Part shown: positions 2,446 to 18,578 of the stretch, one piece after another
Position numbering within the stretch: the stretch's first letter is position 1
Layout: the number at the start of each line of letters is the position of its first letter
Origin: a virus
Lineage: Duplodnaviria; Caudoviricetes
Direction: 5' to 3' (one strand)
IMG/VR virus record: IMGVR_UViG_3300032221_000516
Location: 1-60,223 of that record
DNA: 60,223 nt
Program-made: the position numbers and the translations under genes
The notes under the pieces: generated by a model
Database searches by the model: none
What the model was told of the DNA's origin: nothing
Seen by the model: only the letters and a program-made list of their open reading frames with translations

Positions 2446-2487
2446 ACTTATTATATATTAATATTATGGTCTTGTGTAATATTTTTT

Positions 2488-2940
2488 GTGATAATACAAA
2501 GCAGAGAAATGGTTAATATTTGGAAAAATAGACTAATGCCTAGAAATAGCATTATTGTTGATGGCTCTTATGAAACAGTAGATATTCCTTTGTTGCAAGA
2601 CAAGATATTTCCTCTGTATTGGCGTTGGATGTCTAGCATGAAAGTCACAAAATGGGCTCACAGATGGGATTGTGATAATTTTAGTGAAGCTTTTAGAGTA
2701 TTTGCTTGTGGCTATTTTTATAATAGTATAGAATCTACAGCTGATAGTATTGCTATTGGTATTATTCACTATAATTCTAATTCTAGAGAAGAGAATGGTA
2801 CTCAAGGGCCACATGCTATTAACGTGGCTATTAACAAAGTAGATGGAATAATAACACCTATATACATAGAGCCGCAAGCTTGCAAAATCATTAATCTCAA
2901 AGAAGAAGAGTATCAAAGCATTTGGACCTTTTATATCTAA
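2488..2940 (+). CDS. papain/transglutaminase-fold cysteine protease-like protein (agglutinin C-terminal/MOA-like)
   Basis: WDCDNFS ... HAIN ... IEPQ gives a Cys-His-Glu triad; GTG start 8 nt after GTGTAA. Confidence 0.6.
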   Translation: MIIQSREMVNIWKNRLMPRNSIIVDGSYETVDIPLLQDKIFPLYWRWMSSMKVTKWAHRWDCDNFSEAFRVFACGYFYNSIESTADSIAIGIIHYNSNSREENGTQGPHAINVAINKVDGIITPIYIEPQACKIINLKEEEYQSIWTFYI

Positions 2941-2946
2941 AAATAG

Positions 2947-2975
2947 TTGACAATAAGTTAAATAACCTATATAAT
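2947..2975 (+). promoter_or_regulatory. perfect sigma70-type promoter TTGACA-17-TATAAT
   Basis: TTGACA 2947-2952, TATAAT 2970-2975, ATG at 2985. Confidence 0.85.
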
Positions 2976-2984
2976 GGCTCTATC

Positions 2985-3308
2985 ATGAAAAAAGCAATAC
3001 TAACAATCCTATTAAGTCTCGGACTATACGCAACCTCTAACGCCCAAATGAAATGTTACTCTTGGAATGATGATTTTGGCAACGCAGAAGAGCACAGAAT
3101 TCGCACAGCCAAAGCAATGGTTCGTCAATCTCAAATTGTTCAACAAGTATACAGCAAGCCAAAAATGGAGTATCGTGATAGACTACTAATGAAAAATGCT
3201 GCTCGTAATGTTGAAATGCATCAAGGTAATGAGTATGCTATTCTCAGAAACAGACACAACATCAAATCAATTGGCGGACCAGCTTTTGAAATCAAGAATT
3301 ATAAATGA
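2985..3308 (+). CDS. secreted hypothetical protein (start corrected to 2985)
   Basis: MKKAILTILLSLGLYATSNAQ is a classical signal peptide; the promoter lies inside the longer ORF-track call. Confidence 0.7.
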   Translation: MKKAILTILLSLGLYATSNAQMKCYSWNDDFGNAEEHRIRTAKAMVRQSQIVQQVYSKPKMEYRDRLLMKNAARNVEMHQGNEYAILRNRHNIKSIGGPAFEIKNYK

Positions 3309-3372
3309 TTAGATATTTATTGCAATGTTTATCCTTACGAGGATACTCAGAGTAATATGTTATTAAAAAAAC

Positions 3373-3771
3373 ATGAAAAAATTTATAATATTTTCCTTAT
3401 TTATATTTACATGTTCATTTTCTAATGCTCAAATTAATAAGAAAGTACCTCTAAACTATCCTAACTCTTGTCTTTTAAATAGCATAGTAGCTTACGAAGC
3501 AATTAATAAAAAATTAGGTCAACATAATATATGGAGCGAAGTTTTAGGAGCAGTTTATTATGAAAATCATAATGGCAGAAGAGTAAAAGAAGGCCATGCT
3601 GTATGCATATATGAATGGAGAAGAAAATTTTATTTATATGATATTAATAATGGCGGAAGTATAATCGAGATGCATGGAGTAGATTTTAATATGAAAAAAG
3701 ATGCTTTTAAAATGGCAGAATGGCTTTTTGGAGAAGGTAACGTAGAAGCAGCAGAATATTTAGCCAACTAG
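3373..3771 (+). CDS. secreted protein with a putative papain/transglutaminase-like Cys-His-Asp triad
   Basis: Signal peptide MKKFIIFSLFIFTCSFSNA; NSCL ... GHAVCIY ... YLYD. Confidence 0.5.
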   Translation: MKKFIIFSLFIFTCSFSNAQINKKVPLNYPNSCLLNSIVAYEAINKKLGQHNIWSEVLGAVYYENHNGRRVKEGHAVCIYEWRRKFYLYDINNGGSIIEMHGVDFNMKKDAFKMAEWLFGEGNVEAAEYLAN

Positions 3772-3785
3772 TGTAATCATATTTA

Positions 3786-4763
3786 ATGTTTAAAGTATTA
3801 TTAGGCTTATCAGCCTTATTCTTAGCGTCTTGTGGAGCTTTCTTTTCTGTAAAAGGAATTGGACTTTTATTTTCTGGTAGCTTTTGGCCAGCAATTATTA
3901 TGGCTAGTAGTCTAGAATTTGGCAAAATAATGGCAACTAGCTTTTTATATAGATACTGGAAAAAAATCAATAATATTATCAAAACATATTTAATAACCGC
4001 AGTAGTAGTTCTTATGGCTATTACAAGTCTTGGCATATTTGGATTTCTTAGTCAAGCTTTTTACTCAACTAAAAGTAATATAGATGCAATTGAATCTCAA
4101 GTATCTTTATTACAAGCCAAAAAGACTTCATTAAAAGACCAAATAGCTTCAAATAATGATAGAGTCAAGACTCTTGTAGATACTCGTAAAAGCCAAGAAA
4201 ATAATCTAACTAAAGCACTAGATCAATCTACAACTACAACAGTGACCAAATCTGGAGGATTATTTAGTAGCGATACTCAAGAAAAAGTAATAGATAAAAA
4301 ATCAGTAGAATTAAAGTCTAAAACATTAGATACAATGCAATCTAGCATTTCTACATTAGAATCTAATATACAAAAAATTAACCTTAACAACGAGGACTTA
4401 AATAAAGAAATTAATAATATTGACAATCAAATAATAACTTTAAATAAAGAAATCGTATCATCTGATATTGGCACATATAAATTCATAGCAGAAGCATTCA
4501 ATGTAAAAATAGAAACTGTTGTTAAATATTTTATATTAATTATTGTAGCAGTATTTGATCCATTAGCAGTATCACTATTATTAGCTTATAATATTGCAGC
4601 TAATAGAAAATTCGATGAAAAAGAAGTCGAAGTAGTTAAAGAAATAATCAAAGAAAAAATAATAGAAAAGCCAATTGAAATAGTAAAAAATCTATCTATA
4701 CCCTTTAAAAGGGGAACAAAGCAAACTCACAATCCAGATCTAGCAGATCCGAATTTAAAATAG
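3786..4763 (+). CDS. phage membrane protein with long coiled coil
   Basis: Three N-terminal hydrophobic helices, a heptad-rich middle and a C-terminal TM segment (IVAVFDPLAVSLLLA). Confidence 0.7.
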   Translation: MFKVLLGLSALFLASCGAFFSVKGIGLLFSGSFWPAIIMASSLEFGKIMATSFLYRYWKKINNIIKTYLITAVVVLMAITSLGIFGFLSQAFYSTKSNIDAIESQVSLLQAKKTSLKDQIASNNDRVKTLVDTRKSQENNLTKALDQSTTTTVTKSGGLFSSDTQEKVIDKKSVELKSKTLDTMQSSISTLESNIQKINLNNEDLNKEINNIDNQIITLNKEIVSSDIGTYKFIAEAFNVKIETVVKYFILIIVAVFDPLAVSLLLAYNIAANRKFDEKEVEVVKEIIKEKIIEKPIEIVKNLSIPFKRGTKQTHNPDLADPNLK

Positions 4764-5036
4764 CGCGAAATCTTTTTTAAATTTTAAATTTAGTTTAAAA
4801 GAATTTACAGCTAAACCTCGGTCAAATCTTTTAATAAAATTCGTACCTTCTTTTGGCATTGCTGCAATATATTCTTTATTTTTAGTTTTTACAACTATAT
4901 GAGAAGGTAATACTGAAACACTCATTAATTTACCTTTCATATTTCTTTTAATTGCTCTAGCTATTGCACAATTTTGAGGATTAGCTTTTTCACCCTCAAA
5001 TATGTTTTTTTCAGTTATGTTTATTATTTTCTTCAC
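4755..5036 (-). CDS. hypothetical protein
   Basis: Overlaps the upstream - strand gene; GEKANPQNCAIARAI motif; plausible composition. Confidence 0.6.
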   Translation of the reverse strand: MKKIINITEKNIFEGEKANPQNCAIARAIKRNMKGKLMSVSVLPSHIVVKTKNKEYIAAMPKEGTNFIKRFDRGLAVNSFKLNLKFKKDFALF

Positions 5037-5673
5037 TTCTTATTTCCTCTATTTTATAATCATAACTATCACTATCTTCAGTAATCCATTTGGGACTATT
5101 TTCAACAGTATAGATATGAGTATTTACTTTTCTTTGCAACAATATTTCATTTGGTTTTGTTGCGAAGCTTGGATCGAATACTTTAATTCTATTATTAGGT
5201 TGTATTGCAAAATTTCCATTATCTAGTTCTATTACATGACCAGCTTTATGTTGATCTGGATTTTCACTAAATCCAAAATGAATTTCATTAAAATCACCAT
5301 TAGCCCAATCAAGAGTAAAAAGATATTTACCAAAATATTCTTGACCAGTTCTTCCAGTATATTTTATTTTTTTATTTTGAAGAACATAAAATTTTGTTAC
5401 AGCTATATTATAACTAAAACTATCCCATAACTCTAATTCACTCAACTCCATATTTGGAGAATCTAGCTTTGTGCAAAAAGCACTTATTGGAGCATGCCAC
5501 CATATTCCTCCATCTTCCATAAGAAAATTAAAAAGTGGAACTTGACTAGGTAAACTCGTAACGCCAAAAATTAAACATTTATATTTTTTATCAAAACTAT
5601 CTTCTTGATTCCTTAAATAGTTTCCTCGGACGAAACATTCTATTGGGGGTATATTTGAGTTTAAGTATGCCAT
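5011..5673 (-). CDS. conserved phage hypothetical protein (MAYLNSNIPP type)
   Basis: 220 aa ORF with GTGTAA 11 nt upstream on the - strand; resembles a family I recall from aquatic phages. Confidence 0.75.
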   Translation of the reverse strand: MAYLNSNIPPIECFVRGNYLRNQEDSFDKKYKCLIFGVTSLPSQVPLFNFLMEDGGIWWHAPISAFCTKLDSPNMELSELELWDSFSYNIAVTKFYVLQNKKIKYTGRTGQEYFGKYLFTLDWANGDFNEIHFGFSENPDQHKAGHVIELDNGNFAIQPNNRIKVFDPSFATKPNEILLQRKVNTHIYTVENSPKWITEDSDSYDYKIEEIRSEENNKHN

Positions 5674-5711
5674 CTTTATTTTAATTACACTCTTTTGTGT
5701 AATATAATCAA

Positions 5712-6218
5712 ATGGTAATTATAAGTCTTGGTTTTACAGTTGCATGTAAATTTGATGAAATGCTTCCTATAGATATAGACGCAAGACAGGATAAAGATGT
5801 TATTCAAAGTTGTAAAGAATTTTCAGATAAATTTAAACTAGACTTAAGATTATATAAAACAAAAAATGGACATAGAGCTTTTGTAACAAATAAAAAATTT
5901 AATATTCGTAAAGATTTTGATTTAATTTATTATTATTTTAATGCTTTGAAAGGAGATCTAAAATATTTAGATGTGGCATTTAATAAAGAAGCAACTTATT
6001 TTCATACAAGAATTGTACCTAAAACTCAAGATTTTAAAACTTTTAATGAGCAAGAAATCATAAAAAATTTTATAAAATATCAAAAAGATTCAAATATCTC
6101 AGTTTGTAAATACATTGATTCATTTGGTCAAGATATTATTTTACCAGAGTTCGAAACATACATAAGCAAGCACGACCACGCTACCAAAGCTTTTCTTAAA
6201 GATTCTATATTAGTATAA
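5712..6218 (+). CDS. hypothetical protein, possible AEP/primase-like fold
   Basis: PIDID and RLYKTKNGHRAF motifs; GTGTAA 9 nt upstream. Confidence 0.55.
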   Translation: MVIISLGFTVACKFDEMLPIDIDARQDKDVIQSCKEFSDKFKLDLRLYKTKNGHRAFVTNKKFNIRKDFDLIYYYFNALKGDLKYLDVAFNKEATYFHTRIVPKTQDFKTFNEQEIIKNFIKYQKDSNISVCKYIDSFGQDIILPEFETYISKHDHATKAFLKDSILV

Positions 6219-6244
6219 ATTGTGTAATATAGTTTGTAAGTATA

Positions 6245-6964
6245 ATGTCTAAAAAACACAAACAAAAAGAAGACAAGTCAGCTCCTGTTCCTCAAAGAGA
6301 TAAAATTGAAGGGTTCTTGAATATTCGTGAATTACAATGGACAGATAATCAAAAGAAATTTATTCAACTACTTCAAGACAAGACTACTAAAATGGTATTC
6401 TGCAAAGGCCCAGCAGGAACAGCAAAGAGTCTTCTTAGCGTATACGCAGCTTTAAATGCTATAAATCAAAAAAAGATTGGCGAGATATTTTATATTCGTA
6501 ATCCAGTAGAAAGCTCTTCTCATAACCTTGGATTCCTTAAAGGCGATCTTCACAGTAAACTTGATCCTTATCTTCAACCTTTAATGGATAAACTTCACGA
6601 ACTATTACCAAAGGGACAAGTTGAAATGCTACTAAAACAAGAAAGAGTTAAAGGATTACCAGTAGGATTTTTAAGAGGACTCAGCATTAACGCTAGCTAT
6701 ATTATCTGCGATGAAGCTCAAAATTTAAGTGTTCATGATTTGTTACTTATTACTACTAGAATGGGCAAATTTAGTAAATTAATATTAATTGGAGATATTA
6801 GACAATCTGATATTAAGAATAGCGGATTTGAAAAGATATACAACCTTTTTGACGATAAGAAAAGCTCAGATAAAGGAATATGCACTTTTAAATTTGGACG
6901 AGAAGATATTATGAGAAATGATATCTTAGCATATATTATTGAGAAATTTGAAGAATTAGACTAA
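6245..6964 (+). CDS. phoH: PhoH-like ATPase
   Basis: GPAGTAKS Walker A variant, LGFLKG, FLRG, DEAQN, TRMG, GDIRQSD and EDIMR motifs. Confidence 0.93.
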   Translation: MSKKHKQKEDKSAPVPQRDKIEGFLNIRELQWTDNQKKFIQLLQDKTTKMVFCKGPAGTAKSLLSVYAALNAINQKKIGEIFYIRNPVESSSHNLGFLKGDLHSKLDPYLQPLMDKLHELLPKGQVEMLLKQERVKGLPVGFLRGLSINASYIICDEAQNLSVHDLLLITTRMGKFSKLILIGDIRQSDIKNSGFEKIYNLFDDKKSSDKGICTFKFGREDIMRNDILAYIIEKFEELD

Positions 6965-6983
6965 CTCTAGTGTAACCATTCTT

Positions 6984-8855
6984 ATGGCTCCATTAGTACA
7001 AGTAGATGATCAAACAGAAAAACGCATAGGTCTCGTTTATAATAGTGAAAGTGGACTTTATCAAGCTCTTGATTTTAGTAAATTAGATGACATAGAAACT
7101 CTTTTAAGAGAAGGAGTAGAAGTTAGATTAACTGGAGTTAATACAGTACAAGTTAATGTAACTGGCGGAAGTTTAACAGTAGCAGATACAGTAGATGTAC
7201 ATAATCATCCAGCGGATCCACTTTATGTTGCAACAGTTTCTGGAGTAACTGGAATTTTAGTAAATAATTTCCCAGCAATTCAAAATGTAACTGGAAACAT
7301 TACTGGTAGCGTTAGAGTAAATAATTTTCCAGCAATCCAAAATATAACTGGTAATATTACTGGAAATGTATCTGTTGTAAACTTTCCAGCGATTCAAAAC
7401 GTAACTGGTAACATTACTGGCAACGTATCTGTTGCGAATTTCCCAGCGATTCAGAACGTAACTGGTAACATTACTGGCAACGTATCTGTTGCGAATTTCC
7501 CAGCGATTCAGAATGTAACTGGTAACATTACTGGCAACGTATCTGTTGCGAATTTCCCAGCGATTCAAAATGTAACTGGAAATTTATCTGTAATCAATCC
7601 AGTTGATGTTAATGTAACTAATTTTTCAGCACAATCTGCTCAAATAGATGCATTTGGTCGCCAAAGAATTTCAAATCCATTTACTCTTGCAGATTATTCT
7701 CACGCTTACGGAGAAGAAACAGAATTATTGACTAAAACTAGTGGTACAAATTCTAATATAACATTTAATATCGATCAAGCAAAAGCAATACTACAAGTTG
7801 GAGCTGGAGCTAATGATTTTACAATTCACCAAAGCAGAATGTATCATCACTACATGCCAGGAAAAAGTCAATTAACTTTTCAAAGTTTTAATTTTACAGG
7901 ATATAGAGCTGGCACAAATAAAAGAATTGGTCTTTTTGATGACCGTAACGGAATATTTTTTGAACAAAGCGGAGATGGGACTTTATCATTTGTTTTAAGG
8001 AATTATGTTTCGGGACTTGTATCAGAAGAAAGAATAACCCAAAACAATTGGAATATAGATAAATGTAATGGAAGTGGAATTTCGCAATTTAATTTAGATA
8101 TAACAAAAACACAATTATTCACAGCAGACTTTCAATGGCTAGGAGTTGGAAGAGTAAGAGTTGGATTAGTACATGATGGTGAATCAGTAATCGCTCATGA
8201 ATTTTATAATAGCAATAACAAACCAACCGTTTATTGGAGTAACCCAAATCTTCCAGTTAGATGTGAAATTAGAAATTATGCTGTAGCAGTTGGAACAGAC
8301 ACCATGGATCAAATTTGTGCTACAGTAATGAGTGAAGGTGGATATAATGAAGCAGGAGTAGATTTTTCAGCAAGAAACCTTACAGCAAGATCAGTGCTTA
8401 CAACTAGTCAACTTCCGCTAGTCGCAATAGCGCTAAAGACTGGATATTATGGCAAACCAAATCGAAGCGTTGTTAGACCAAACATGGCCAATATTTATAC
8501 TTTAACAGACGCAATAACTTATGAACTTTGGAGAATTCCAAGTACTGGTCAAATAGTTGGCGGAACTTGGGTAAGTGCAAACGATGAAAGCGTTATTCAA
8601 TATAATATTAGTGCAACAAGTGTTAATTTTACTAGTGGTATGTTAATAGATGCTGGATATTGTATTGCTGGAGGTCAAGGGGCAGGAAAATTTAGTTCTC
8701 AATCTCAAATACAAAATTTATCAAGCGCAAAAAGAGGTTATATTAGTCAAAATATTGATAGCACAAATAGTAATGTTTTTGTTATAGTTGGATCTGGAAT
8801 TGGAACTAATTCAAGCAATACTTTTGCAAGTTTACAATGGCGAGAAACTAGATAA
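6984..8855 (+). CDS. virion-associated protein with N-terminal 20-aa repeats and a C-terminal beta-rich (lectin-like) domain
   Basis: VANFPAIQNVTGNITGNVS repeats; DAFGRQRIS, YMPGKS and WLGVGRVRVG motifs seen in phage structural proteins. Confidence 0.6.
   Translation: MAPLVQVDDQTEKRIGLVYNSESGLYQALDFSKLDDIETLLREGVEVRLTGVNTVQVNVTGGSLTVADTVDVHNHPADPLYVATVSGVTGILVNNFPAIQNVTGNITGSVRVNNFPAIQNITGNITGNVSVVNFPAIQNVTGNITGNVSVANFPAIQNVTGNITGNVSVANFPAIQNVTGNITGNVSVANFPAIQNVTGNLSVINPVDVNVTNFSAQSAQIDAFGRQRISNPFTLADYSHAYGEETELLTKTSGTNSNITFNIDQAKAILQVGAGANDFTIHQSRMYHHYMPGKSQLTFQSFNFTGYRAGTNKRIGLFDDRNGIFFEQSGDGTLSFVLRNYVSGLVSEERITQNNWNIDKCNGSGISQFNLDITKTQLFTADFQWLGVGRVRVGLVHDGESVIAHEFYNSNNKPTVYWSNPNLPVRCEIRNYAVAVGTDTMDQICATVMSEGGYNEAGVDFSARNLTARSVLTTSQLPLVAIALKTGYYGKPNRSVVRPNMANIYTLTDAITYELWRIPSTGQIVGGTWVSANDESVIQYNISATSVNFTSGMLIDAGYCIAGGQGAGKFSSQSQIQNLSSAKRGYISQNIDSTNSNVFVIVGSGIGTNSSNTFASLQWRETR
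7260..7590 (+). repeat. 60-nt in-frame tandem repeat, about 5.5 copies
   Basis: Near-identical units ...aatttcccagcgattcaRaaYgtaactggtaacattactggcaacgtatctgttgcg... Confidence 0.9.
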
Positions 8856-8900
8856 TTTTATCTTATCAATTTTTATATTTGATGTGTAATATAAATTACT

Positions 8901-9185
8901 ATGACAGAATTATTTAGAGATTCAGGTTTTGAAAAAATAGCTCTAGTGAGTGGAAGAGCAACAGCTGGAACAGTTATTGAAGCCCCAGGAGCAGGAAAAA
9001 ATGTTTTTCTATTAGGAATTTTATCTAGTGGAGCAACAATTTTAAAAGAAGGCGATAATAATGGAAACGTAATAATGTATGTTCCTGCTGGAAACTCAGA
9101 TCTATCTGCAACTATTAAAGTACCAAATAATAGTGGAGTATATAGTAGTAACGGAAACGTTTCTATAATTCATTACGTAAATTAA
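8901..9185 (+). CDS. small beta-rich hypothetical (possible virion) protein
   Basis: 94 aa; GTGTAA 11 nt upstream. Confidence 0.65.
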   Translation: MTELFRDSGFEKIALVSGRATAGTVIEAPGAGKNVFLLGILSSGATILKEGDNNGNVIMYVPAGNSDLSATIKVPNNSGVYSSNGNVSIIHYVN

Positions 9186-9189
9186 TATT

Positions 9190-9218
9190 TAGAATATACT
9201 CTTTATTTAGCATATAAT
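9190..9218 (+). promoter_or_regulatory. sigma70-like promoter TAGAAT-17-TATAAT, leaderless
   Basis: TATAAT 9213-9218 lies 5 nt before ATG 9224. Confidence 0.65.
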
Positions 9219-9223
9219 AATAT

Positions 9224-9685
9224 ATGTTAAAAATTTATTGTTCTGAATGTGGTTCGCCAACTGAATATTCCTTAAATAAACCTAAATTTTGCACAAATTG
9301 TGGAAATTCATTTTTTGGTGCTAAAAAAGAAGAAAAAGTAGCTTTGCCAGTACAAATGCAAAAACCAACTATAAGTAAAGCTAAAAGACCAAATATTGAA
9401 CCAGAAGATTATGAGGATGACGATAGTGAAATTACAGAAGTAAATGAAGTACCAGATATTAATAATTTAGATTTTGATGTTGACATTAATCAAAATAAAG
9501 GAGAAAAAATTGGTAGTATAATTGGTTCTTCAGATAAAAACGATTTAAGAAAATACAGGTCTTCAGAAAAAGTAGATACTAAAAAAGTATTAGAGGATTT
9601 CGCAAGAGAAGGTGGAGCAATTCGTCCAGCTTCAAGAACATCAACAAATTCAGCCAAACGTCGTAGAGGACGAAACAATGGCTAA
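9224..9685 (+). CDS. zinc-ribbon protein
   Basis: N-terminal CSEC...CTNC; acidic middle and basic C-terminus. Confidence 0.75.
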   Translation: MLKIYCSECGSPTEYSLNKPKFCTNCGNSFFGAKKEEKVALPVQMQKPTISKAKRPNIEPEDYEDDDSEITEVNEVPDINNLDFDVDINQNKGEKIGSIIGSSDKNDLRKYRSSEKVDTKKVLEDFAREGGAIRPASRTSTNSAKRRRGRNNG

Positions 9686-10358
9686 AAAACCCAAGTTTGA
9701 AAATTGTATAGATAACATAAATACAGAAATCCTTAAAAGAAAAAATAAGTGGAATTTAACAGCAATTGCTTGGATGGATTTTAGTGATGTTTCTCAAATT
9801 TTAAGATTTCATATTTATAAAAAGTGGCATCTTTACGATTCTTCTAAACCTCTTGCTCCTTGGGTAAATCGAATTATAAGCAATCAAATTAAAAATCTTA
9901 TTCGTAATAATTATAGTAATTATACTCGGCCTTGTTTAAAATGCTCTGCTGCAGAAAGTGATGATGGTTGTGGAATTTATAGCAAACAATGTTCAAATTG
10001 TCCATTATATGCAAATTGGGAAAAGAATAAAAAGAGCGCGCATGATACCAAACTAACAGTAAGCTTAGAAAATCATACTCAAGAAATAAATGATATGAAA
10101 AATGAAAATTTCAATCTTGAGGCCACAGCACAAAATGTACATAATAAAATGTTTAAAATACTAAAACCAATTGAATGGAAAATTTATCAATACTTATATA
10201 TAGATGGCAAAGATGATGAACAAGTTGCTAAATTAATGGGATATAGAACAACTGAAAAGAATCGCATGGCAGGATACAAGCAAATAAAGAATTTAAAAAA
10301 ATCAATTATTATTAAAGTCAAGAAGCACTTGTATAATGGAGATATTGATATTATATGA
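9678..10358 (+). CDS. ECF-like RNA polymerase sigma factor with Cys-rich insert (start corrected to 9678)
   Basis: Region-2-like DVSQILRFHIYKKWHLYD..KPLAPWVNRIISNQIKNLIR; region-4-like LKPIEWKIYQYLYIDG..DEQVAKLMG; CLKC/C/CSNC between them; GAGGA before ATG 9678. Confidence 0.7.
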   Translation: MAKKPKFENCIDNINTEILKRKNKWNLTAIAWMDFSDVSQILRFHIYKKWHLYDSSKPLAPWVNRIISNQIKNLIRNNYSNYTRPCLKCSAAESDDGCGIYSKQCSNCPLYANWEKNKKSAHDTKLTVSLENHTQEINDMKNENFNLEATAQNVHNKMFKILKPIEWKIYQYLYIDGKDDEQVAKLMGYRTTEKNRMAGYKQIKNLKKSIIIKVKKHLYNGDIDII

Positions 10359-11449
10359 GCGAAGATATTTTCGTTCTCACAGACGAACAGCAATTAAAAT
10401 TACTCACAGAATGGAATAATCGTCCAGATAACCCTCCATCTTTAGCAGAGTTAGTTAAACTTGCTTTTGATAGAGATGATCTTGATGGTCGTAGTAAAGA
10501 GGGCAAAGCTGTAAAACAATTTCTTGCTTCTAGACATATTAAACCAAGAAAAAGTCATGAATACGAAGCTAAAGGTCTCATAGAATTAACAAACGAACAA
10601 AAAGAATACATTAGCAATAATTGCTTAACTATGACTGGTTTAGAAATGGGTAAAATTTTATTTAAAAATGAAGCACTAACTAATTTATGCCAAGAAACTA
10701 GAAGTGTTTTAGAGTATATGAAAGTTATTCCAACTAACATTAAATATAATAACACAGAAAATGAAGACGCAGCTTCTGGAGATTACAAGCCACCTCGTAG
10801 CGAAGAGAGAATGGTAGCGAAAATTAATAAATATGTTATGGATGGTATTGATAAAACTAAAATTACACATGGTCAAAAAAGAGAAATTATAGCAGTAATT
10901 GGTTATATGAATACTCATAGATTTATTCATCAAATTAATCTTTACGACAATGAAAGCGACAGAGAATTGTTTGAAAGTAGCTTTATAAGATATACATACA
11001 ACAAAGCAGATTTAACACAAGAAGAAGTTGACCAATATATTGTTCTTTGTACCGAAGTATTGATATCTTCTAATATTCAACAAACAATTAGCGTTCTTCA
11101 AAATCAAATTGATATTGCAATTCAAGAAGATGGCAAGATTCCAATGGCTATAGTAGAAGCAAGCAATACTGCAAGAAAAGAATACAACGATTGCGTTAAT
11201 CGTCAACAAAAATTAAACAATGATCTTAAAGTAAAACGAAGTGAAAGATTAAGCAAGCAAGTAAAAGAAACAGCATCCATTATTAACCTTGTGCAAATGT
11301 GGAAAGAAGAAGAAAGTCGCGCTAAATTAATTAAAATGGCAGAGATGAGAAAGAAAACTGTAGAAAAAGAAATAGATAGATTATCATCTATGGACGAAGT
11401 TAAATGTAAAATATTAGGAATTTCAAAAGACGAAATATTAAATGGTTAA
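10355..11449 (+). CDS. hypothetical protein, possible terminase small subunit / DNA-binding coiled-coil protein
   Basis: Position upstream of the large terminase; HTH-like N-terminus; coiled-coil C-terminus; ATGA coupling. Confidence 0.45.
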   Translation: MSEDIFVLTDEQQLKLLTEWNNRPDNPPSLAELVKLAFDRDDLDGRSKEGKAVKQFLASRHIKPRKSHEYEAKGLIELTNEQKEYISNNCLTMTGLEMGKILFKNEALTNLCQETRSVLEYMKVIPTNIKYNNTENEDAASGDYKPPRSEERMVAKINKYVMDGIDKTKITHGQKREIIAVIGYMNTHRFIHQINLYDNESDRELFESSFIRYTYNKADLTQEEVDQYIVLCTEVLISSNIQQTISVLQNQIDIAIQEDGKIPMAIVEASNTARKEYNDCVNRQQKLNNDLKVKRSERLSKQVKETASIINLVQMWKEEESRAKLIKMAEMRKKTVEKEIDRLSSMDEVKCKILGISKDEILNG

Positions 11450-12389
11450 TCTTATGTCAGTTATTTGTAAAGTAGATGGTAAAGAATTTAAAGATGAAAA
11501 AAGCTTGCATCTTGCACTTAGAGGTTATGGTTTAAACAAAGAAAAATACTATCATACTTATTATCCTAAAAAAGATCTTCTTACTGGCGATACTATTAAT
11601 TTTAAAACTAAAGAGCAATATTTTAATAGAGACTTTAATGATAAGAATAACATGAAAAAATGGCTCAAAGAACAGCCATTAGATAAAGCTCAAGAATATA
11701 CTAAACAATTACTAGCTAAAAGAAAAGAAGAGAAGAAATTAACATATAGTCCTTGTCAAGTAGAATTAAGAACTATTATGGCTCCGTCTATTATTTCTTA
11801 TAATAAATTATTTAATGATTATTATGATGTTTGCTCTAGCGTAGGCTTAGAAAATAAGTTTATACATCCGAATAATATCATTCACCAATTTAAAAATAAA
11901 TTAAATTCAAAAGATACTATTTATGTTGATACAAGAGAACAGAATTGGCTTAAATTCAATATACCTTTTGAAATAAAGACCCTACCATATGGAGATTATA
12001 CCTGCTCTAATGATAATTGTAGTTGCTTTATAGAAAGAAAAAGTCTTAGTGATTTTATTAGTACTCTAAGCGTTGGTAATCTTGAAAGATTTAAAAACGA
12101 GATAACTAGAGCAAAAAAAGATAACGCTTATCTTGTTGTTGTAGTAGAAGAAAAGCTTTCTAATGCATTAAGTTTCCAATATCTTCCTCATATTAGTAAA
12201 AAGATTAAAGCAACTCCAGAGTTTATATTTCATAATGTTAGACAATTACTTCAAGAATTTGATAATCTACAATTTGTTTTTGTAGATGGCAGGGAAGAGA
12301 TGAAAAGAACTATAGAATCTATTTTAGCTAGTAAATGTTTTTATAAAAAAGTAGATTTACAATTAGCTTATGATATGAAACTTTTATGA
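11442..12389 (+). CDS. ERCC4/XPF-family structure-specific nuclease
   Basis: VDTREQ ... GDY ... IERKSLSDF is the ERCC4 catalytic signature. Confidence 0.85.
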   Translation: MVNLMSVICKVDGKEFKDEKSLHLALRGYGLNKEKYYHTYYPKKDLLTGDTINFKTKEQYFNRDFNDKNNMKKWLKEQPLDKAQEYTKQLLAKRKEEKKLTYSPCQVELRTIMAPSIISYNKLFNDYYDVCSSVGLENKFIHPNNIIHQFKNKLNSKDTIYVDTREQNWLKFNIPFEIKTLPYGDYTCSNDNCSCFIERKSLSDFISTLSVGNLERFKNEITRAKKDNAYLVVVVEEKLSNALSFQYLPHISKKIKATPEFIFHNVRQLLQEFDNLQFVFVDGREEMKRTIESILASKCFYKKVDLQLAYDMKLL

Positions 12390-14233
12390 TATATTGTCCA
12401 GATAAATATTTAAGAGAAGTCAAAGATGTTAATGCTGAATTATCTCAGCTTAAAGGATTTCTTAATGATAAAGAAGCTAAAATCTCTTTAGCTAAATTTC
12501 TTAGAGCTAATATTGGATTTACAACAGAACTTATTAGTGGAGTTAAGCTAGCTCCATATCAAGAGTTGCATCTTAAAGCTTTAATGAATAGAAATTTTAA
12601 CATGTGCGTGTTTGGTCGTGGTTGCGGTAAGTCATTTATGGCAGCAGTATTTTGTTTTCTTCAATGTGTATTTGAACCTAATACCAAAATCTTAATTGCT
12701 GGTCCAACGTTTAGAACTGCTCGGTTTATTTTTAATAACTTAGAAAAAATTGTAGATAGCAAAGGCGCAGAACTACTTGCTCAATGTTTTGGTGCTAAAG
12801 CTAAAAGAAACGATCAATTTGAATGGCAAATTAATGGTGGAAGCATCGTTGCTATTCCTCTTAATGGTGAAAAGATTCGAGGATTTCGAGCAAACATTCT
12901 AGTCCTTGACGAGTTTCTTTTGCTTCCAGAAGAAATTATTAAAAATGTATTGATGCCATTCTTGGTTGCTCCACAAAATATGAAAGAGCGTATGGAAATT
13001 AGAGAATTAGAGGATAAACTTATAGCAGACGGCTTAATGAAAGAAGATGAGAGAATGGTTTTTGAAAATACTAGTAAAATGATTGCACTTTCATCTGCAA
13101 GTTATACTTTTGAAAATCTTTATAAGACTTATAAAGAATGGTCTGAAAAAATTGAATCAAAAGAAAAACAAGAAGCCACATATTTTGTCAGCCAAATGAG
13201 TTACGAAGCTCTTCCAGAAGAAATGATTGACAAAACAATTATCGAAGAAGCTCAAGCTGGCGGATTTAGTCATAGTAGTTTTATGAGAGAATATTGTGCT
13301 CGATTTACAGATGGTAGTGATAGTTATTTTAATGCAAAGAAAATGGAAGATTGTACTTTACCATTAGGAGAAGCTCCTCATACTTTACTAAGAGGAGATC
13401 CAAAGAAAAAATATATTCTTGGCATCGATCCTAATATGAGTGATAGTCCAAATGCGGATTATTTTGCTATGGCTATTTTAGAAGTAGATGACGAAACAGG
13501 ACAAGGCACATTAGTTCATACTTATGCTGGTTTAGGTAATTTAAAAAATCACGTTGCATATTTATATTATATATTAAGTAATTTTAATATCATTTTAATG
13601 ATTATAGATAATGCAGGAGCAGATGTTTTCTTGTCAGCTTGTAATCAATCAGAATTATTTAAAAAAGATAAACTTGAAATTAAAACATTTGATTTTGATA
13701 GTGATTTAGAAGGTGTTGATTATGATCTTATGGTTAAAAATGCTAGAAAAAAATATAATATAGAAGATAAAAAAATAGCCTTTAACCAAGTATTTACAAG
13801 TTCATTTATTCGTAAAGCTAACGAACATTTACAAGCTTGTATTGATTATAAGAAAATATGGTTTGCTAGTAAAACTGGAGCATATGAATCTTTCTTTAAT
13901 ACAGTATTAAATCAAGGAGCAGCAAATCTAGATTTAATTAGAGGAGAAGATAAAAAAGATTGGACAACATTAGATTTTATTGAAAATCAAGATGATTATA
14001 TATATCAGACTAAAAAACAATGTGCTCTAGTTGAACATTCTAGTACTAGCCGTGGTACTCAAAGTTTTGATTTACCACAACACCTCAAAAGAAGCTCTTC
14101 TGCCAATAAAGCTAGAAAAGATAATTATTCAGCACTTATGTTAGCAAATTGGGCCTTAAAATGCTATAATGATATGATGAAAGAACCAGAAACTGTCGAA
14201 AGTCCAACTTTTTCGCCTATAATGATTAAATAA
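12386..14233 (+). CDS. terL: terminase large subunit
   Basis: Walker A GRGCGKS, IRGFRANILVLDE Walker B, RNase H-like ILGIDP and C-terminal KDNYSAL. Confidence 0.92.
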   Translation: MIYCPDKYLREVKDVNAELSQLKGFLNDKEAKISLAKFLRANIGFTTELISGVKLAPYQELHLKALMNRNFNMCVFGRGCGKSFMAAVFCFLQCVFEPNTKILIAGPTFRTARFIFNNLEKIVDSKGAELLAQCFGAKAKRNDQFEWQINGGSIVAIPLNGEKIRGFRANILVLDEFLLLPEEIIKNVLMPFLVAPQNMKERMEIRELEDKLIADGLMKEDERMVFENTSKMIALSSASYTFENLYKTYKEWSEKIESKEKQEATYFVSQMSYEALPEEMIDKTIIEEAQAGGFSHSSFMREYCARFTDGSDSYFNAKKMEDCTLPLGEAPHTLLRGDPKKKYILGIDPNMSDSPNADYFAMAILEVDDETGQGTLVHTYAGLGNLKNHVAYLYYILSNFNIILMIIDNAGADVFLSACNQSELFKKDKLEIKTFDFDSDLEGVDYDLMVKNARKKYNIEDKKIAFNQVFTSSFIRKANEHLQACIDYKKIWFASKTGAYESFFNTVLNQGAANLDLIRGEDKKDWTTLDFIENQDDYIYQTKKQCALVEHSSTSRGTQSFDLPQHLKRSSSANKARKDNYSALMLANWALKCYNDMMKEPETVESPTFSPIMIK

Positions 14234-14254
14234 AGGTGTAATAATCCACGTAAA

Positions 14255-16168
14255 ATGGCCAAAAAAATTAAAAAACAAGAAAAAATAGCTAAAGCAGCTG
14301 ATGTTCAACCTTATATGGTATCTGAATCTTCTTATAAAGAAGTTAAGGCTTCCACTAGTTCAGGGTCTAATGGAGTCAGAAGAAATGCTGCTAGTACAAT
14401 TATAAGAACAGATAGATATAAGAATATTGATGATGGCATTATCCCATTCAGATATTCTACTGGCATTAAAAATGATTCTAATTTAAATATTAGAGATGCA
14501 GTTATCCTTTGTCAAAAAGCATATTATAATTTTGCTATTTTTAGAAACACGATCGACTTGATGACAGAGTTTTCTTGTAGCGATATTTACTTTACTGGTG
14601 GCAGTTCCAAATCTAGAACATTTTTTGAATCATTATTTAGAAAAATAAATATTAATGATCTTCAAGATAAATTTTTCCGTGAATATTATCGTAGTGGTAA
14701 TGTATTTATTTATAGATTTGATACGAAAATTTCAGAAGAAGATGTATCTAAAATTACTCAAACATTTGGATTAGCGACCACTAAAGCTGCGGTTAATTTA
14801 CCATCTAAATATATCATACTCAATCCAGCAGATATTCAAATTGCTGGAACAATTAATTTTTCTCAAAGAAAATATTACAAACTATTAAGTGATTATGAAC
14901 TTGAAAGATTAAAGTCTCCAAAAACTGATGAAGATAAAGAAGTTTTACAAAGTCTTCCGCCAGAAACAAGAAAACTTATTCAACAAAAGGCTATTGGAAT
15001 TTTAACTTTGCCACTTGATGCAGATCGAATTGCAGCAGTATTTTATAAAAAACAAGATTACGAGCCATTTTCAGTTCCAATGGGATTTCCAGTTTTAGAA
15101 GATATCAATTGGAAAGCTGAAATGAAAAAAATGGACATGGCAGTAGCTAGAACTATGCAACAAGCGATTCTCCTTGTAACAATGGGAACAGATCCAGAAA
15201 AAGGAGGAGTCAATCAAAAAAATCTTGAATCAATGCAACAACTTTTTGCAAATCAAAGCGTGGGTAGAGTTTTAATTGCTGATTATACAACTAAAGCTGA
15301 ATTTGTAATTCCTAATATTGGAAATTTAATAGGACCAGAAAAATATCAAGTTGTAGATAGAGATATTCAAATTGGTTTAAATAATATTCTTATTGGTGAT
15401 GAAAAATTTGCTAACACAAGCATTAAAGTGCAAGTATTTATTGAAAGATTAAAACAAGCTCGTCAAGCATTTATTAATGAATTTTTAGTACCAGAAATTC
15501 GTAGAATGAGCAAAGAGCTTGGATTTAAAAATTATCCAATGCCAAATTTCGAAGATATTGATCTTAAAGATGATATTCAATATTCTAGAGTTTATACTCG
15601 TCTAGTTGAATTAGGTGTTCTTACTCCAGAAGAAGGCATTAGAGCAATTGAAACTGGTCGCCTTCCAAATGCAGAAGAGTCTACTGAAGCTCAACAAAAA
15701 TTTAAAGATCTAAAAGATCAAGGATTTTATCAACCACTAATTGGTGGCGCAAAAGTTCCAGATAGCGCAGGAAGACCAGCTGGTTCTGGAACTCCACAAT
15801 CAACTAAAAATGTTTCTCCAATTGGCCAAGGCAAACAATCTAAAGCTAACGAGGATAAGTTTAGCCTTTCTAAAGTAAAAGAAAATCTTGTTCTTGCTCA
15901 AAAACTAGAAGAAGAAGTATCATCTGCTCTTCGTAAAAAACATAATCTTAAAAAATTAAGTTATAATCAAAAAGAAGTCGCTGAACAAATATCTAAAATA
16001 ATTATCGTCAATGAGCTCCCAGAAAATTGGGTTTCTAAAATAGAAAATTATATTAAACAACCAGTTGATCAAAATCAAGAAGTTGTTGCTAGTGTAAATT
16101 CTATTGCTTATGATCACCAAGTTGATAGTTATCTTGCAAGTATTCTTTATCACAGTAAGGTAAAATAA
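14255..16168 (+). CDS. portal protein
   Basis: Follows terL; IFRNTIDLMTEF, REYYRSGNVF and ILNP motifs; size and synteny fit. Confidence 0.8.
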   Translation: MAKKIKKQEKIAKAADVQPYMVSESSYKEVKASTSSGSNGVRRNAASTIIRTDRYKNIDDGIIPFRYSTGIKNDSNLNIRDAVILCQKAYYNFAIFRNTIDLMTEFSCSDIYFTGGSSKSRTFFESLFRKININDLQDKFFREYYRSGNVFIYRFDTKISEEDVSKITQTFGLATTKAAVNLPSKYIILNPADIQIAGTINFSQRKYYKLLSDYELERLKSPKTDEDKEVLQSLPPETRKLIQQKAIGILTLPLDADRIAAVFYKKQDYEPFSVPMGFPVLEDINWKAEMKKMDMAVARTMQQAILLVTMGTDPEKGGVNQKNLESMQQLFANQSVGRVLIADYTTKAEFVIPNIGNLIGPEKYQVVDRDIQIGLNNILIGDEKFANTSIKVQVFIERLKQARQAFINEFLVPEIRRMSKELGFKNYPMPNFEDIDLKDDIQYSRVYTRLVELGVLTPEEGIRAIETGRLPNAEESTEAQQKFKDLKDQGFYQPLIGGAKVPDSAGRPAGSGTPQSTKNVSPIGQGKQSKANEDKFSLSKVKENLVLAQKLEEEVSSALRKKHNLKKLSYNQKEVAEQISKIIIVNELPENWVSKIENYIKQPVDQNQEVVASVNSIAYDHQVDSYLASILYHSKVK

Positions 16169-16169
16169 T

Positions 16170-18533
16170 ATGCCAAATTATATTAGAGTAAAGCAAATTA
16201 ACCAAGGAGAATTAACTGGATTTTTTGTAGATTCTATATCTTCAGAAAGTGGTTTATTACTTGCATTTGCATCAGGTGCTGCATATGGAGTTGCATCAGG
16301 AATTATTTTAAATGAAACAGTATTATTAACTGGCAACCAAATTATTTCTGGAGTTAAAACTTTTACGACAGGTATATTTGCTCCTAACTTAGTATACAAT
16401 ACTGGAAACCAAACTATCTCTGGAGTTAAAACTTTTACGACAGGTATATTTGCTCCTAACTTAGTTTACAATACTGGTAACCAAACTATTAGTGGAGTTA
16501 AAACTTTTACGACAGGTATATTTGCTCCTAACTTAGTTTACAATACTGGTAACCAAACTATTAGTGGAGTTAAAACTTTTGCAGCTGCAGGAAATAATAT
16601 TGTTATAAGTGGTACCAGCGATGCTGAAGGTTTAATTAAATCTTTAAACAGTAATTTGACAATAGAAGGAGCTAATTCTACTTATGGAATATATTTTGCT
16701 GATGATGGAACATACATTCGTGGTAACACAGAAATAAATAACGATTTACTTGCACAAACTGGAACTTTTCAAAAACTTTATGCGGATAATTTAGTTTACA
16801 ATACTGGAAATCAAAATATTAGTGGAATTAAAAATTTCACTAATAATTTAGTAATCCAAGATAATATTTTATTTAGTTCTCAACCAAGTGGATTTTTTAG
16901 CGGAGTAGGAATTACTGGAAGTGGCGATGGTGGGTTTTTCTTAGGTAGAAATAAAATTTCTCAAAATACTTTACTTTTAAAAGATGAAAATATTGGAAAT
17001 TCTTTTAGTACAAAATTAATTGATTCAATTAGAAATTGGAGAGGAATCGCAATGTCAAGCGATGGTAAATATCAAACAGCAGTAAATAATGCTGGATATA
17101 TTTATATTTCTAATGATTATGGAAATACTTGGAGAGAAAAAGACTCGTCAAGAACTTGGGTAGATGTTAGCATGAGCAGTTGTGGGAAATATCAAACAGC
17201 AATTACAAATTCATCACCATTTGGAAATATCTATGTATCTTCTGATTATGGAAATACATGGATTTTGGCTGCTTCATCAATTATAAGTCCGCAAAGAATC
17301 GCAATGTCAAGCGATGGTAAAATTCAAGTCCTCGCAAAATATACTCCAACTCAAGAATATGTAATTTCTAATGATTATGGTAATACTTGGACTGCTGGCG
17401 ATGTGTCTTCTGCTAGTGGCGTAAGAGCTGTAGCAATAAGTAGCGATGGAAAATATATAACTCTTGTTGGATCAGGAACTCCTGATAGAATTTATATTTC
17501 TAGTGATTATGGATCAACTTGGACAACAGTTGGACCTAGCTCAATAGGTTTTTCTGCAGTAGCAATGAGTAGTAACGGACAATATCAAGTTGCAAGTGCA
17601 AGTAGTGGATATATTTATATTTCTTCAGATTATGGAAATAATTGGGCTCTTGAAACTTCAAGTGGCTCTCGTAGTTGGCTTTCTGTTGATATAAATAGCG
17701 ATGGAAAATATATAGTTGCTGGTGCAGCCAGTGGAAATATTTATATTTCATCTAATTATGGAGAAACTTGGAAATCAATAGCAACTTCTCAAGTATGGTA
17801 TTCTATTAAAATCAGCAGTAATGGTAAATACATAATTGCAGCGGCGGGTGCAAATTACATTTATATTTCTAAAACTGACGAACAGATAGATGGAAATCTT
17901 TACGCGGAAAATCTTGTTTACAATACTGGCAACCAAACTATTAGCGGAGTTAAAAATTTCTCTAGCACTCCAACTGTTAATGGCACTGGAGTATTATTGA
18001 GTGGCGATTCTTTAGTTACGCATATACGACCTAGCGGAACAAATAATGTTTTCGTTTCTTCTGGTGCACTTGCTTCAACCTCTATTGGTAGTCAAAACAA
18101 CATTGCTGTTGGGGTAAATGCACTTACCGCCAACGCCGTGGGAGATGACAACGTTGCTATGGGCCATGAAGCCCTTTACTCTAACACAAACGGTAATGGC
18201 AATATTGGTATTGGGAGGGATGCACTAAAAAATGCCAATGGACCTGATGCCAATATATGCATAGGTACTCAAGCGGGAGACACTATTCAGGCAGGTGGCA
18301 GTAATATAATAATTGGACACGAAGCCGATGTTGATAACGGTGGCAGGCAAAGGTGCATTGTCCTCGGAAGGAGCGCAGTTTCTCCAGCAATCGACGGTTC
18401 GTTAGCGATTGGGGGCACTGCTGGGAATGTAATGGCCAACCTTACTGGTACCAGCGCAGGGGCAGCCGCAGGAGACTATTTAAACATTTACATAAACGGA
18501 GTTCAGCGCAAGATTGCTCTTTTACTACCGTAA
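16170..18533 (+). CDS. fibre/adhesin with shaft repeats, BNR/Asp-box beta-propeller and C-terminal beta-roll
   Basis: LVYNTGNQTISGVKTF repeats; about 6 SxDYGxTW Asp-boxes; NxAxGxxAL repeats at the C-terminus. Confidence 0.75.
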   Translation: MPNYIRVKQINQGELTGFFVDSISSESGLLLAFASGAAYGVASGIILNETVLLTGNQIISGVKTFTTGIFAPNLVYNTGNQTISGVKTFTTGIFAPNLVYNTGNQTISGVKTFTTGIFAPNLVYNTGNQTISGVKTFAAAGNNIVISGTSDAEGLIKSLNSNLTIEGANSTYGIYFADDGTYIRGNTEINNDLLAQTGTFQKLYADNLVYNTGNQNISGIKNFTNNLVIQDNILFSSQPSGFFSGVGITGSGDGGFFLGRNKISQNTLLLKDENIGNSFSTKLIDSIRNWRGIAMSSDGKYQTAVNNAGYIYISNDYGNTWREKDSSRTWVDVSMSSCGKYQTAITNSSPFGNIYVSSDYGNTWILAASSIISPQRIAMSSDGKIQVLAKYTPTQEYVISNDYGNTWTAGDVSSASGVRAVAISSDGKYITLVGSGTPDRIYISSDYGSTWTTVGPSSIGFSAVAMSSNGQYQVASASSGYIYISSDYGNNWALETSSGSRSWLSVDINSDGKYIVAGAASGNIYISSNYGETWKSIATSQVWYSIKISSNGKYIIAAAGANYIYISKTDEQIDGNLYAENLVYNTGNQTISGVKNFSSTPTVNGTGVLLSGDSLVTHIRPSGTNNVFVSSGALASTSIGSQNNIAVGVNALTANAVGDDNVAMGHEALYSNTNGNGNIGIGRDALKNANGPDANICIGTQAGDTIQAGGSNIIIGHEADVDNGGRQRCIVLGRSAVSPAIDGSLAIGGTAGNVMANLTGTSAGAAAGDYLNIYINGVQRKIALLLP
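16326..16580 (+). repeat. 72-nt in-frame tandem repeat, about 3.5 copies
   Basis: actggNaacc recurs at 16329, 16401, 16473 and 16545. Confidence 0.9.
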
Positions 18534-18578
18534 ACACGTAGTGTAAGTATATATGCTGGAAATGTATTAAAATTATAT

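Follow-up and report, generated by a model that had tools for sequence, protein, structure and literature searches.

In this work, we describe a candidate late-transcription locus in the viral record IMGVR_UViG_3300032221_000516, an IMG/VR record that was analysed as a whole (60,223 bases, 31% G+C) and is hereafter called the window. Two overlapping genes lie there at the head of an operon that leads into the packaging genes (table 1). The first encodes a small protein with a zinc (Zn) ribbon, and the second a sigma factor of the extracytoplasmic function (ECF) type with four invariant cysteines (the Cys4 module) in the linker between its sigma2 and sigma4 domains. A short motif, GTGTAAT, stands at the head of gene groups in the same DNA. 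From sequence comparisons and structure models, we consider it probable that the Zn-ribbon protein and the sigma factor make up a module for late transcription in a large aquatic tailed phage, so far uncultured, which depends on the host RNA polymerase. Within this reading we infer the binding of zinc, the recognition of the motif by the sigma factor, the start sites of transcription and any role of the Zn-ribbon protein.

The window encodes a PhoH-like gene, a virion structural protein, the large terminase (TerL), a portal-like gene and a tape measure protein of 1699 amino acids (aa), from which we assign it to a large tailed phage; nearly all of its genes lie on the + strand. No match to the sigma-like protein was found by tblastn at E 1e-3 in 50,697 cultured phage records, and the terminase has only matches of about 25% identity among cultured phages. 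Species-representative genomes, scanned for a possible host or prophage, gave a single match, weak and irrelevant. The sigma family is nevertheless large, with 1698 homologues at E 1e-3 in one protein search and 429 clusters at 50% identity in another.

Table 1. Features of the locus and of the motif, with the additional sigma genes of related phages (nt, nucleotides; aa, amino acids; positions are those of the window unless a related locus is named)
Feature	Position	Strand	Description
Window	1..60223		whole IMG/VR record
GTGTAA	5685-5690	-	12 nt before the - strand gene 5011-5673
GTGTAAT	8884..8890	+	11 nt before gene 8901-9185, directly upstream of the Zn-ribbon/sigma operon
Putative host sigma70-type promoter	9189..9218	+	TTAGAA 9189-9194, 18-nt spacer, TATAAT 9213-9218, 5 nt to ATG
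Zn-ribbon protein	9224..9685	+	153 aa; C6-x2-C9 ... C23-x2-C26, i.e. CxxC-x13-CxxC
ECF-type sigma factor	9678..10358	+	226 aa; 8-nt overlap with the Zn-ribbon reading frame, translationally coupled
sigma2 domain	9678..9920	+	residues 1-81; invariant D37, N73; near-invariant K49, W62, R76
Cys4 module	9930..10052	+	residues 85-125; P-C86-x2-C89-x8-C98-x9-C108-P-L-Y-x2-W114, then helix
Flexible acidic/polar linker	10053..10115	+	residues 126-146; model confidence (pLDDT) 74-83; least confident and least conserved stretch
sigma4 domain	10116..10337	+	residues 147-220; superposes on the -35-binding domain of SigD
Rest of the translationally coupled operon	10355..14233	+	p364, ERCC4-type nuclease, large terminase; order kept in related loci
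p364	10355-11449	+	364 aa; no family match
ERCC4-type nuclease	11442-12389	+	between p364 and TerL, conserved there in all relatives
Large terminase TerL	12386-14233	+	last gene of the coupled operon
GTGTAAT	14236..14242	+	3' of the TerL stop and 5' of the portal-like gene (ATG 14255); presumed late promoter, the copy with the highest conservation
Other intergenic GTGTAA (starts)	415, 2474, 5697, 6222, 6970, 18541, 18611, 33096, 38691, 55894, 59670	+	
Additional sigma of G006	L222 227-1060	-	277 aa, group-3-like
Additional sigma of G006	L223 435-1043	+	202 aa
Additional sigma of G009	L224 405-1004	+	199 aa
Additional sigma of G008	L226 442-957	+	171 aa, ECF-like

The operon and its conservation

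A preliminary description of this DNA, made from its letters alone, had proposed a CxxC/CxxC Zn-ribbon protein overlapping a sigma-like gene, a leaderless promoter of the sigma70 type before them, and an operon continuing by overlapping stops and starts into the packaging genes. The three proposals were confirmed. The two open reading frames (ORFs) share 8 nt, and the overlaps that follow the sigma gene measure 4, 8 and 4 nt (10358/10355, 11449/11442, 12389/12386). The start of the sigma gene is the ATG at 9678, common to all homologues (MAKKPKFE...) and preceded 7 nt upstream by AGAGGA; the mechanical ORF list had given GTG 9612. The protein encoded next, p364, may be the small terminase.

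The cassette made up of the Zn-ribbon, sigma, p364, ERCC4 nuclease and TerL genes recurs in every related viral locus that was examined, even where sigma identity drops to 34%. In 74 closer loci its members are absent only at contig ends. Among 53 distant loci, gathered with three distant single proteins as queries, the sigma, p364 and ERCC4 genes are present in all 53, the Zn-ribbon gene in 47 by BLAST and in three more by inspection of the upstream ORF, and TerL in 42 by BLAST, most of the loci without it ending shortly past the ERCC4 gene. When loci were sought through the Zn-ribbon protein instead, the sigma gene lay directly 3' of it in 80 of 80, a sample that leans towards closer relatives since it comprises the best 80 of 580. 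In one near relative (L024 5001-5681) the sigma gene is 86% identical and the flanking genes 98-100%, which suggests that the sigma gene was replaced there by recombination.

The support for the operon promoter is comparative. Its TTAGAA matches TTGACA at three of six positions, and because of this weak -35 a consensus scan omits the site; moreover, promoter-like strings in the AT-rich window occur near chance (40 found versus 30.9 +/- 5.4). Nevertheless, an exact TATAAT ending 4-9 nt 5' of the Zn-ribbon ATG is found in 50 of 70 distinct related upstream regions; of the remaining 20, several show CATAAT instead, or TATAAT at a distance of 3 or 13 nt. With TATAAT 5 nt before the ATG, the sequence predicts a leaderless mRNA for the operon.

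Identity of the sigma factor

We regard as sound the assignment of the second ORF to a sigma2/sigma4 protein of the ECF type, a claim of the preliminary description that sequence profiles and a structure model both favour. Pfam Sigma70_r2 aligns with residues 32-78 (E 7.4e-5, 22.9 bits against a cut-off of 24), and orthologues in four related records pass the same cut-off with 24.3-32.5 bits. NCBIfam TIGR02937 (sigma70-ECF) aligns with residues 33-189 (E 5e-8, 32.7 bits against a cut-off of 42.9). A 64-member family profile searched against PDB returned 15 chains at E up to 10, 14 of them sigma factors; the best was sigma2 of SigR (1h3l, E 3.3e-4), the odd one ribosomal protein uL29 (E 0.047), and the profile matches sigma2 of SigR, SigW, CnrH, RpoE and SigH.

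The AlphaFold2 model built from the 64-member alignment has a mean predicted local distance difference test score (pLDDT) of 92.5. Among the Foldseek matches listed, nearly all are sigma factors or holoenzymes that contain one; all stay above E 1e-3, the best being SigH (E 1.8e-3, probability 1.0). Residues 4-81 superpose on the N-terminal domain of SigE (8b3z_F) with Z 8.1 and a root mean square deviation (rmsd) of 2.5 A over 74 of 77 residues, and residues 149-220 on Mycobacterium tuberculosis SigD (3vfz_A) with Z 9.2 and an rmsd of 1.6 A over 62 of 62. Region 2 is thus recovered by profile and by fold, and region 4 by fold; Pfam r3, Pfam r4 and region 1.1 had no sequence match in the window protein. 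Aligned over the whole chain, the model gives similar scores with sigmas of groups 3 and 1 (Z 9.2) and with ECFs (Z 8-9). Within the protein, conservation is highest in sigma2. By analogy with other sigma factors, we would expect the 226-aa protein to bind core RNA polymerase.

The place of the gene before TerL had raised the possibility of a small terminase or packaging specificity factor, which was set aside in view of the specific sigma2 matches. Sound as it is, the sigma identity is no discovery, since some homologues already carry the name "sigma-70 family" or "sigma24 family" at JGI and NCBI. The sigma had also been called apparently distinct. This holds insofar as it has no cultured homologue and no kinship with gp36 of phage phiEco32 beyond a generic sigma2 motif, but not for its naming, homologues being already listed as sigma-70 family. 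In the open-access papers covered by our search, neither such a sigma nor a GTGTAA motif is described.

A cysteine module between sigma2 and sigma4

The insert between sigma2 and sigma4 comprises residues 82-146, and its 65 residues are several times the usual length of an ECF linker. It contains exactly the CLKC-x8-C-x6-CSNC arrangement reported in the preliminary description (C86-L-K-C89-x8-C98-x6-C105-S-N-C108). The columns of the whole sigma protein that are invariant in 64 of 64 diverse homologues (29-55% identity) are D37, N73, C86, C89, C98, C108 and W114, and the family pattern reads P-C-x2-C-x8-10-C-x9-13-C-P-L-Y/F-x2-W-x3-K-K. The remaining cysteine, C105, is present in 27 of the 64 and absent in 37, so the site would have four ligands and not five. 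Four invariant cysteines in this geometry point to a structural zinc site. The insert had earlier been proposed as a five-cysteine element possibly sensitive to metal or redox state: the presence of the insert was confirmed, as was the invariance of four of its cysteines, but the fifth is dispensable and the pattern points to structural zinc. Redox sensing through C105 was set aside given the homologues that lack this residue.

In the whole-protein model the Cys4 module is predicted with high confidence (pLDDT 94-96) as a short knuckle with small strands, followed by a helix (109-125). The insert modelled alone (residues 80-148, 35-row alignment) reaches a pLDDT of 66, and no PDB representative matched that model at Z >= 2. 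From the models we can say that the insert would be a compact module leaning on the rest of the protein. The flexible stretch that follows would occupy, by analogy, the place of the sigma2-sigma4 linker or "sigma finger" of other sigmas.

The GTGTAAT motif

The total count of GTGTAA in the window is at chance (24 versus 28.7 expected), but its placement is not: intergenic DNA amounts to 2179 bases (3.6% of the window) but holds 13 of the 20 + strand copies, a bias (binomial p 1e-14) that no other hexamer equals. These copies head gene groups, 6-13 nt before the start codon, and never stand between coupled genes; where GTGTAA is 25-30 nt from the ATG, a Shine-Dalgarno sequence of the AGGA type sits between. 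The logo is t-W-G-T-G-T-A-A-T-a both in the 13 window sites and in 100 non-redundant sites from all loci, and neither set has a -35 or other upstream element.

The same placement recurs among the relatives. Across all fetched loci, 181 of 257 distinct GTGTAA sites are followed within 35 nt by an ORF of at least 60 aa starting with ATG, with a spacing peak at 8-13 nt, whereas for eight control hexamers of the same composition the proportion is 10-24%. Downstream of TerL, GTGTAA is present in 47 of 48 distinct sequences from closer relatives and, within 75 nt, in 21 of 25 from distant ones, among them loci whose sigma identity is 34-38% and a locus of 51% G+C (counts made by hand on the listed rows). 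In G005, a relative of 208.9 kb that is 100% complete by CheckV, GTGTAA again ranks first among hexamers in the 46 nt that precede gene starts (24 of 79, p 1.5e-16), where TTGACA is also enriched.

Canonical promoters were found in G001, the closest large relative (112.8 kb, 74% complete), whose replication module (Pol III alpha, DnaB, primase, RecA, ThyX) lies on the strand opposite to the sigma gene. Seven TTGAC[AT]-N16-18-TAnnnT promoters, six in the replication module (L080-L085) and one near the record end, terminate 7-9 nt before an ATG. Leaderless starts thus appear to be a habit of the lineage, and these promoters imply a host with the standard sigma70 consensus. GTGTAAT shares its distance to the ATG with such -10 elements, so that, on position and letters, we read it as a promoter of the -10 type. 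Its TGTAAT is TATAAT with G in place of A at -11, the base on which host sigma70 depends most, and host sigma70 should therefore not open it.

Alternatively, GTGTAAT could work in the RNA, as a processing site or as an unusual signal for ribosome binding. This would account for its position 8-13 nt before start codons, a place also used by ribosome-binding sites, but it is very improbable for a motif that is confined to the heads of gene groups and absent between coupled genes, that leaves room for a normal Shine-Dalgarno sequence when farther from the ATG, that is one base away from TATAAT at the spacing of the canonical -10 elements of early genes, and that has TGTA in common with the -10 element of phiEco32 gp36.

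Two further arrangements of the motif were observed. A back-to-back pair lies at 5685-5702 (5685-5690 on the - strand and 5697-5702 on the + strand), between the divergent genes 5011-5673 (-), a ferredoxin-like gene (phrog_3704), and 5712-6218 (+); by sequence, it is presumed to be a divergent pair of late promoters. In three distant relatives (L088 at about 7500, L132 at about 7457, L138 at about 2451) GTGTAA stands upstream of the Zn-ribbon gene, in L088 together with TATAAT. Unlike in the window, the sigma operon of these phages may be self-activating through positive feedback.

Probable recognition of the motif and proposed mechanism

That the sigma factor reads GTGTAA had been suggested in the preliminary description. 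Judging from the sequences, the Cys4 sigma is the probable reader of GTGTAAT: the motif, at the distance of a -10 element, accompanies the sigma family in every related phage examined, and both occur in every lineage sampled. The suggestion is less secure in that some complete relatives have further sigmas.

Under the late-module reading, the host sigma70 holoenzyme would start at the TATAAT 5 nt before the first ATG, yielding a leaderless mRNA for the five coupled genes. The 226-aa sigma would bind the clamp helices and read the -10 element with sigma2, and bind the flap with sigma4. Its linker would form a compact module holding one zinc ion on the four invariant cysteines, at the place of region 3 in larger sigmas. 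Together with the host core, the sigma would recognise a promoter of a single element, tWGTGTAAT, in the register G(-13) T(-12) G(-11) T A A T(-7), and transcription would start at, or a few bases before, the start codons of virion and other late genes. The Zn-ribbon protein, made in step with the sigma, would probably act on the same holoenzyme as a helper or a timer.

Several points weigh against this reading. The window covers about 39% of its genome (CheckV estimate), leaving about 60% outside, and the closest large relative is itself incomplete. Complete relatives carry further sigma genes without the Cys4 module (two in G006, one or two in G008, one in G009 and perhaps one in G007); these genes were sought by Pfam Sigma70_r2 alone, which a minimal sigma of the gp55 type would escape. 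They hint at a sigma cascade in part of the clade, and another sigma could thus read GTGTAA in those phages, possibly also in the phage of the window. Sigma4 has stayed well conserved even though the motif sites show no -35 element, and the window sigma itself stays below the Pfam and NCBIfam cut-offs. The operon promoter has a weak -35, and a place within a sigma70-driven operon is odd for TerL as a purely "late" packaging gene. Finally, no RNA sequencing run containing positions 5600-15500 of the window was found.

A rival reader of the motif would be a different phage factor encoded outside the window, either a second sigma or a gp55-like protein, with the Cys4 sigma serving a smaller set of promoters such as a middle class. 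The extra Sigma70_r2 genes of complete relatives, one or two per genome and without the Cys4 insert, would fit it, as would the share of the genome, about 39%, that the window represents; moreover, sigma cascades are known in phage SPO1, according to the excerpt consulted (PMC13401047). We nevertheless consider this improbable. The extra sigmas are not universal: in the complete G005 only the Cys4 sigma gene matches Sigma70_r2, and GTGTAA is its leading upstream hexamer, while G001 (74% complete) likewise has a single detected sigma gene. The Cys4 sigma and the motif travel together through all sampled lineages, and the hexamer rankings of the window and of G005 show no other conserved upstream motif that would suit the Cys4 sigma. 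Pfam matches (E up to 0.001) named no RNA polymerase in the 41 of 112 called G001 genes that were scanned (the replication module and one end).

The Zn-ribbon protein

The partner of the sigma factor begins MLKIYC-SE-C...KFC-TN-CG and consists of a ribbon (residues 1-28), an acidic and variable middle, and two short motifs. The first motif follows the acidic run (P-x-I-x-x-L-[DE]-hydrophobic-[DE]-hydrophobic), and the second lies near the C-terminus (FLExFxKEAGxxRP). In an alignment of 26 diverse homologues M1, C6, C9, G10, P20, F22, C23 and C26 are invariant. The ribbon is strongly conserved and the remainder evolves fast, the protein having 22-30% identity where the sigma keeps 38-59%. Searches of Pfam, NCBIfam, PHROGs and the ESM Atlas gave only sub-threshold zinc-ribbon matches and viral hypothetical proteins.

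We see roughly an even chance that the Zn-ribbon protein acts on the same polymerase complex, whether as a helper or as an inhibitor. The linkage of its gene with the sigma gene fits more than one role, and adjacency alone is no proof of a functional pair because the whole five-gene cassette is equally conserved. A predicted complex of the two proteins scored 0.00 against a mark of 0.32, without controls, and is evidence neither of binding nor of its absence.

The preliminary description had proposed a co-activator. In such a helping role, comparable to that of gp79 of phiEco32 or gp33 of T4, the protein would bind the flap or RNA channel of the polymerase together with the sigma and perhaps displace host sigma70. 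This is possible but doubtful. The gene linkage would agree with it, and gp79 is reported to displace region 4 of sigma70 and to stabilise gp36 (PMC12276001, in excerpt). On the other hand, the Zn-ribbon protein has no sequence likeness to gp79, and phage 7-11 is described as managing with its sigma alone (PMC8948821, in excerpt).

The opposite role, an anti-sigma or timer, seems to us unlikely. The protein would then be a disordered inhibitor, like FlgM or the anti-sigmas of ECF factors, made one to one with the sigma until a trigger releases it. As is generally known, and as stated in the available part of PMC8999054, ECF sigma genes are typically co-transcribed with an anti-sigma gene; strict adjacency with translational coupling, and a conserved ribbon followed by a fast-evolving, low-complexity remainder with two short motifs, would both suit such an inhibitor. 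But the Zn-ribbon gene lies upstream of the sigma gene, not downstream, and the adjacency is not specific, being common to the whole cassette. The histidine-containing HxxxCxxC motif of zinc anti-sigma (ZAS) proteins is absent, the pattern being CxxC-x13-CxxC, and no anti-sigma family appears among the Pfam matches to E 1.

The Ogr/Delta zinc finger of the late activators of P2 and P4 is likewise missing from the Pfam matches to E 1, although short zinc fingers are hard to detect. A role unrelated to transcription is the third reading that remains. The L-D-F-D-V alternation of the first motif is reminiscent of short motifs of the clamp or strand-addition type, and we offer this as a lead only.

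Other features of the window and its relatives

Two observations concern other genes of the region. The virion structural protein encoded at 6984-8855 (623 aa, phrog_1645) carries N-terminal tandem repeats of about 18 aa at 7257-7568 (NFPAIQNVTGNITGNVSV...). Between near relatives this gene shows 57-90% identity, compared with 97-100% for its neighbours, as expected of a host-recognition part. In the distant relatives L123 (8685-11903), L129 (4635-7706), L130 (8141-11212) and L133 (10660-13809) the terminase frame measures about 3.1 kb, compared with 1.85 kb here; frames of that length would fit an inserted element, for example an intein, or a fused domain.

Novelty and comparison with known systems

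Phage sigmas are textbook switches, and few have been studied (those of T4, SPO1, phiEco32 and 7-11). A phage-encoded alternative sigma that redirects the host polymerase to late genes is a system of a known kind. The features that appear new are the invariant Cys4 in the linker, the obligate upstream Zn-ribbon gene, a probable single-element GTGTAAT promoter with G(-11) over a very large clade, and a consistently leaderless design. The family, which lacks a cultured representative, is abundant in metagenomes. It offers a testable package: a promoter of six to seven invariant bases (down to 34% sigma identity), predicted leaderless early and late mRNAs, and an invariant Cys4 site at the point of entry of the linker into the polymerase. 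Should the module prove to bind zinc and to touch the enzyme or the DNA, it would represent a new way of doing what region 3 and the sigma finger do. A compact, orthogonal pair of sigma and promoter would also be useful for synthetic gene circuits.

A bolder proposal, which we hold rather unlikely when all of its parts are taken jointly, is that the late programme of a very widespread clade of aquatic phages, large and uncultured, is driven by a previously undescribed system of three parts, made up of a linker-module sigma, a Zn-ribbon protein and a G(-11) promoter. The linker of the sigma would have turned into a mini-domain held by zinc and standing in for region 3. The Zn-ribbon protein would be its obligate partner from the same leaderless mRNA, docking on RNA polymerase through the ribbon, and its acidic beta-strand motif (P-x-I-x-x-L-D-F-D-V) would tie late transcription to, for example, the sliding clamp, in the manner of T4 gp33. 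The promoter, of one element with G at -11, would yield leaderless late mRNAs.

Late promoters of T4 also consist of a single element of the -10 type without a -35, read on the host polymerase by gp55, which works with the sliding clamp gp45 and whose co-activator gp33 is a small acidic protein. By its description gp55 stands apart from the window sigma, since it has only a sigma2-like part whereas the latter has a full sigma4; nor is the window phage known to have a clamp gene or to depend on a clamp. Canonical ECFs (group 4) such as SigH, SigL, SigE, SigR and SigW share with the window sigma the sigma2 and sigma4 folds and the sigma2 motifs. Their linker is short, in contrast to the 65-residue linker with a putative zinc module of a phage-borne sigma at whose motif no -35 is seen. 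The -10 elements of ECFs often contain GT, and PDB entry 5or5 is, by its title, region 2 of sigmaE bound to GTAAAA.

For linker cysteines, the nearest precedent is offered by the cysteine-dependent CorE-like ECF238 sigmas. CorE and CorE2 of Myxococcus xanthus are reported to require cysteines for their activity, a CxC in the linker among them, as well as bound metal (PMC8999054, in excerpt). OrbS is described as an ECF sigma that is likewise dependent on cysteines and metal. The CorE group keeps its main cysteine-rich domain as a C-terminal extension (PMC8999054, same excerpt), whereas the Cys4 of the window sigma lies inside the linker; the protein ends six residues after the sigma4 helices, and its linker has CxxC...C...C and not CxC.

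By gene position, the sigma recalls the late regulators of the RinA/ArpU type in temperate phages of Gram-positive bacteria, whose gene, according to the part of PMC3152322 available, also lies immediately upstream of terS-terL. These regulators belong to a different protein family and activate one promoter of a late operon, versus the many dispersed promoters presumed here.

A close parallel is gp36 of phiEco32, a phage protein that, like the window sigma, has a sigma2-like and a sigma4-like part, and that is used with the host core for middle and late genes (PMC12276001; this and the following statements on gp36 refer to an excerpt of that paper). We detected no kinship between the two families (hhalign probability 2%, over 19 columns at the generic sigma2 motif), and unlike for the window sigma, no cysteine module is reported for gp36 in that excerpt. 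The C-terminal domain of gp36 contacts -37 and -34 (PMC12276001), while no upstream element is seen at GTGTAAT. A small phage protein, gp79, assists gp36 (PMC12276001); it differs in sequence from the Zn-ribbon protein, and its gene is not adjacent to that of gp36, unlike the Zn-ribbon and sigma genes. The promoters nevertheless agree in design: the element that gp36 recognises (PMC12276001) is AATGTA, with its centre at -11.5 and with T at -12 and G at -11, and this single short -10 element shares TGTA with GTGTAAT in the same register.

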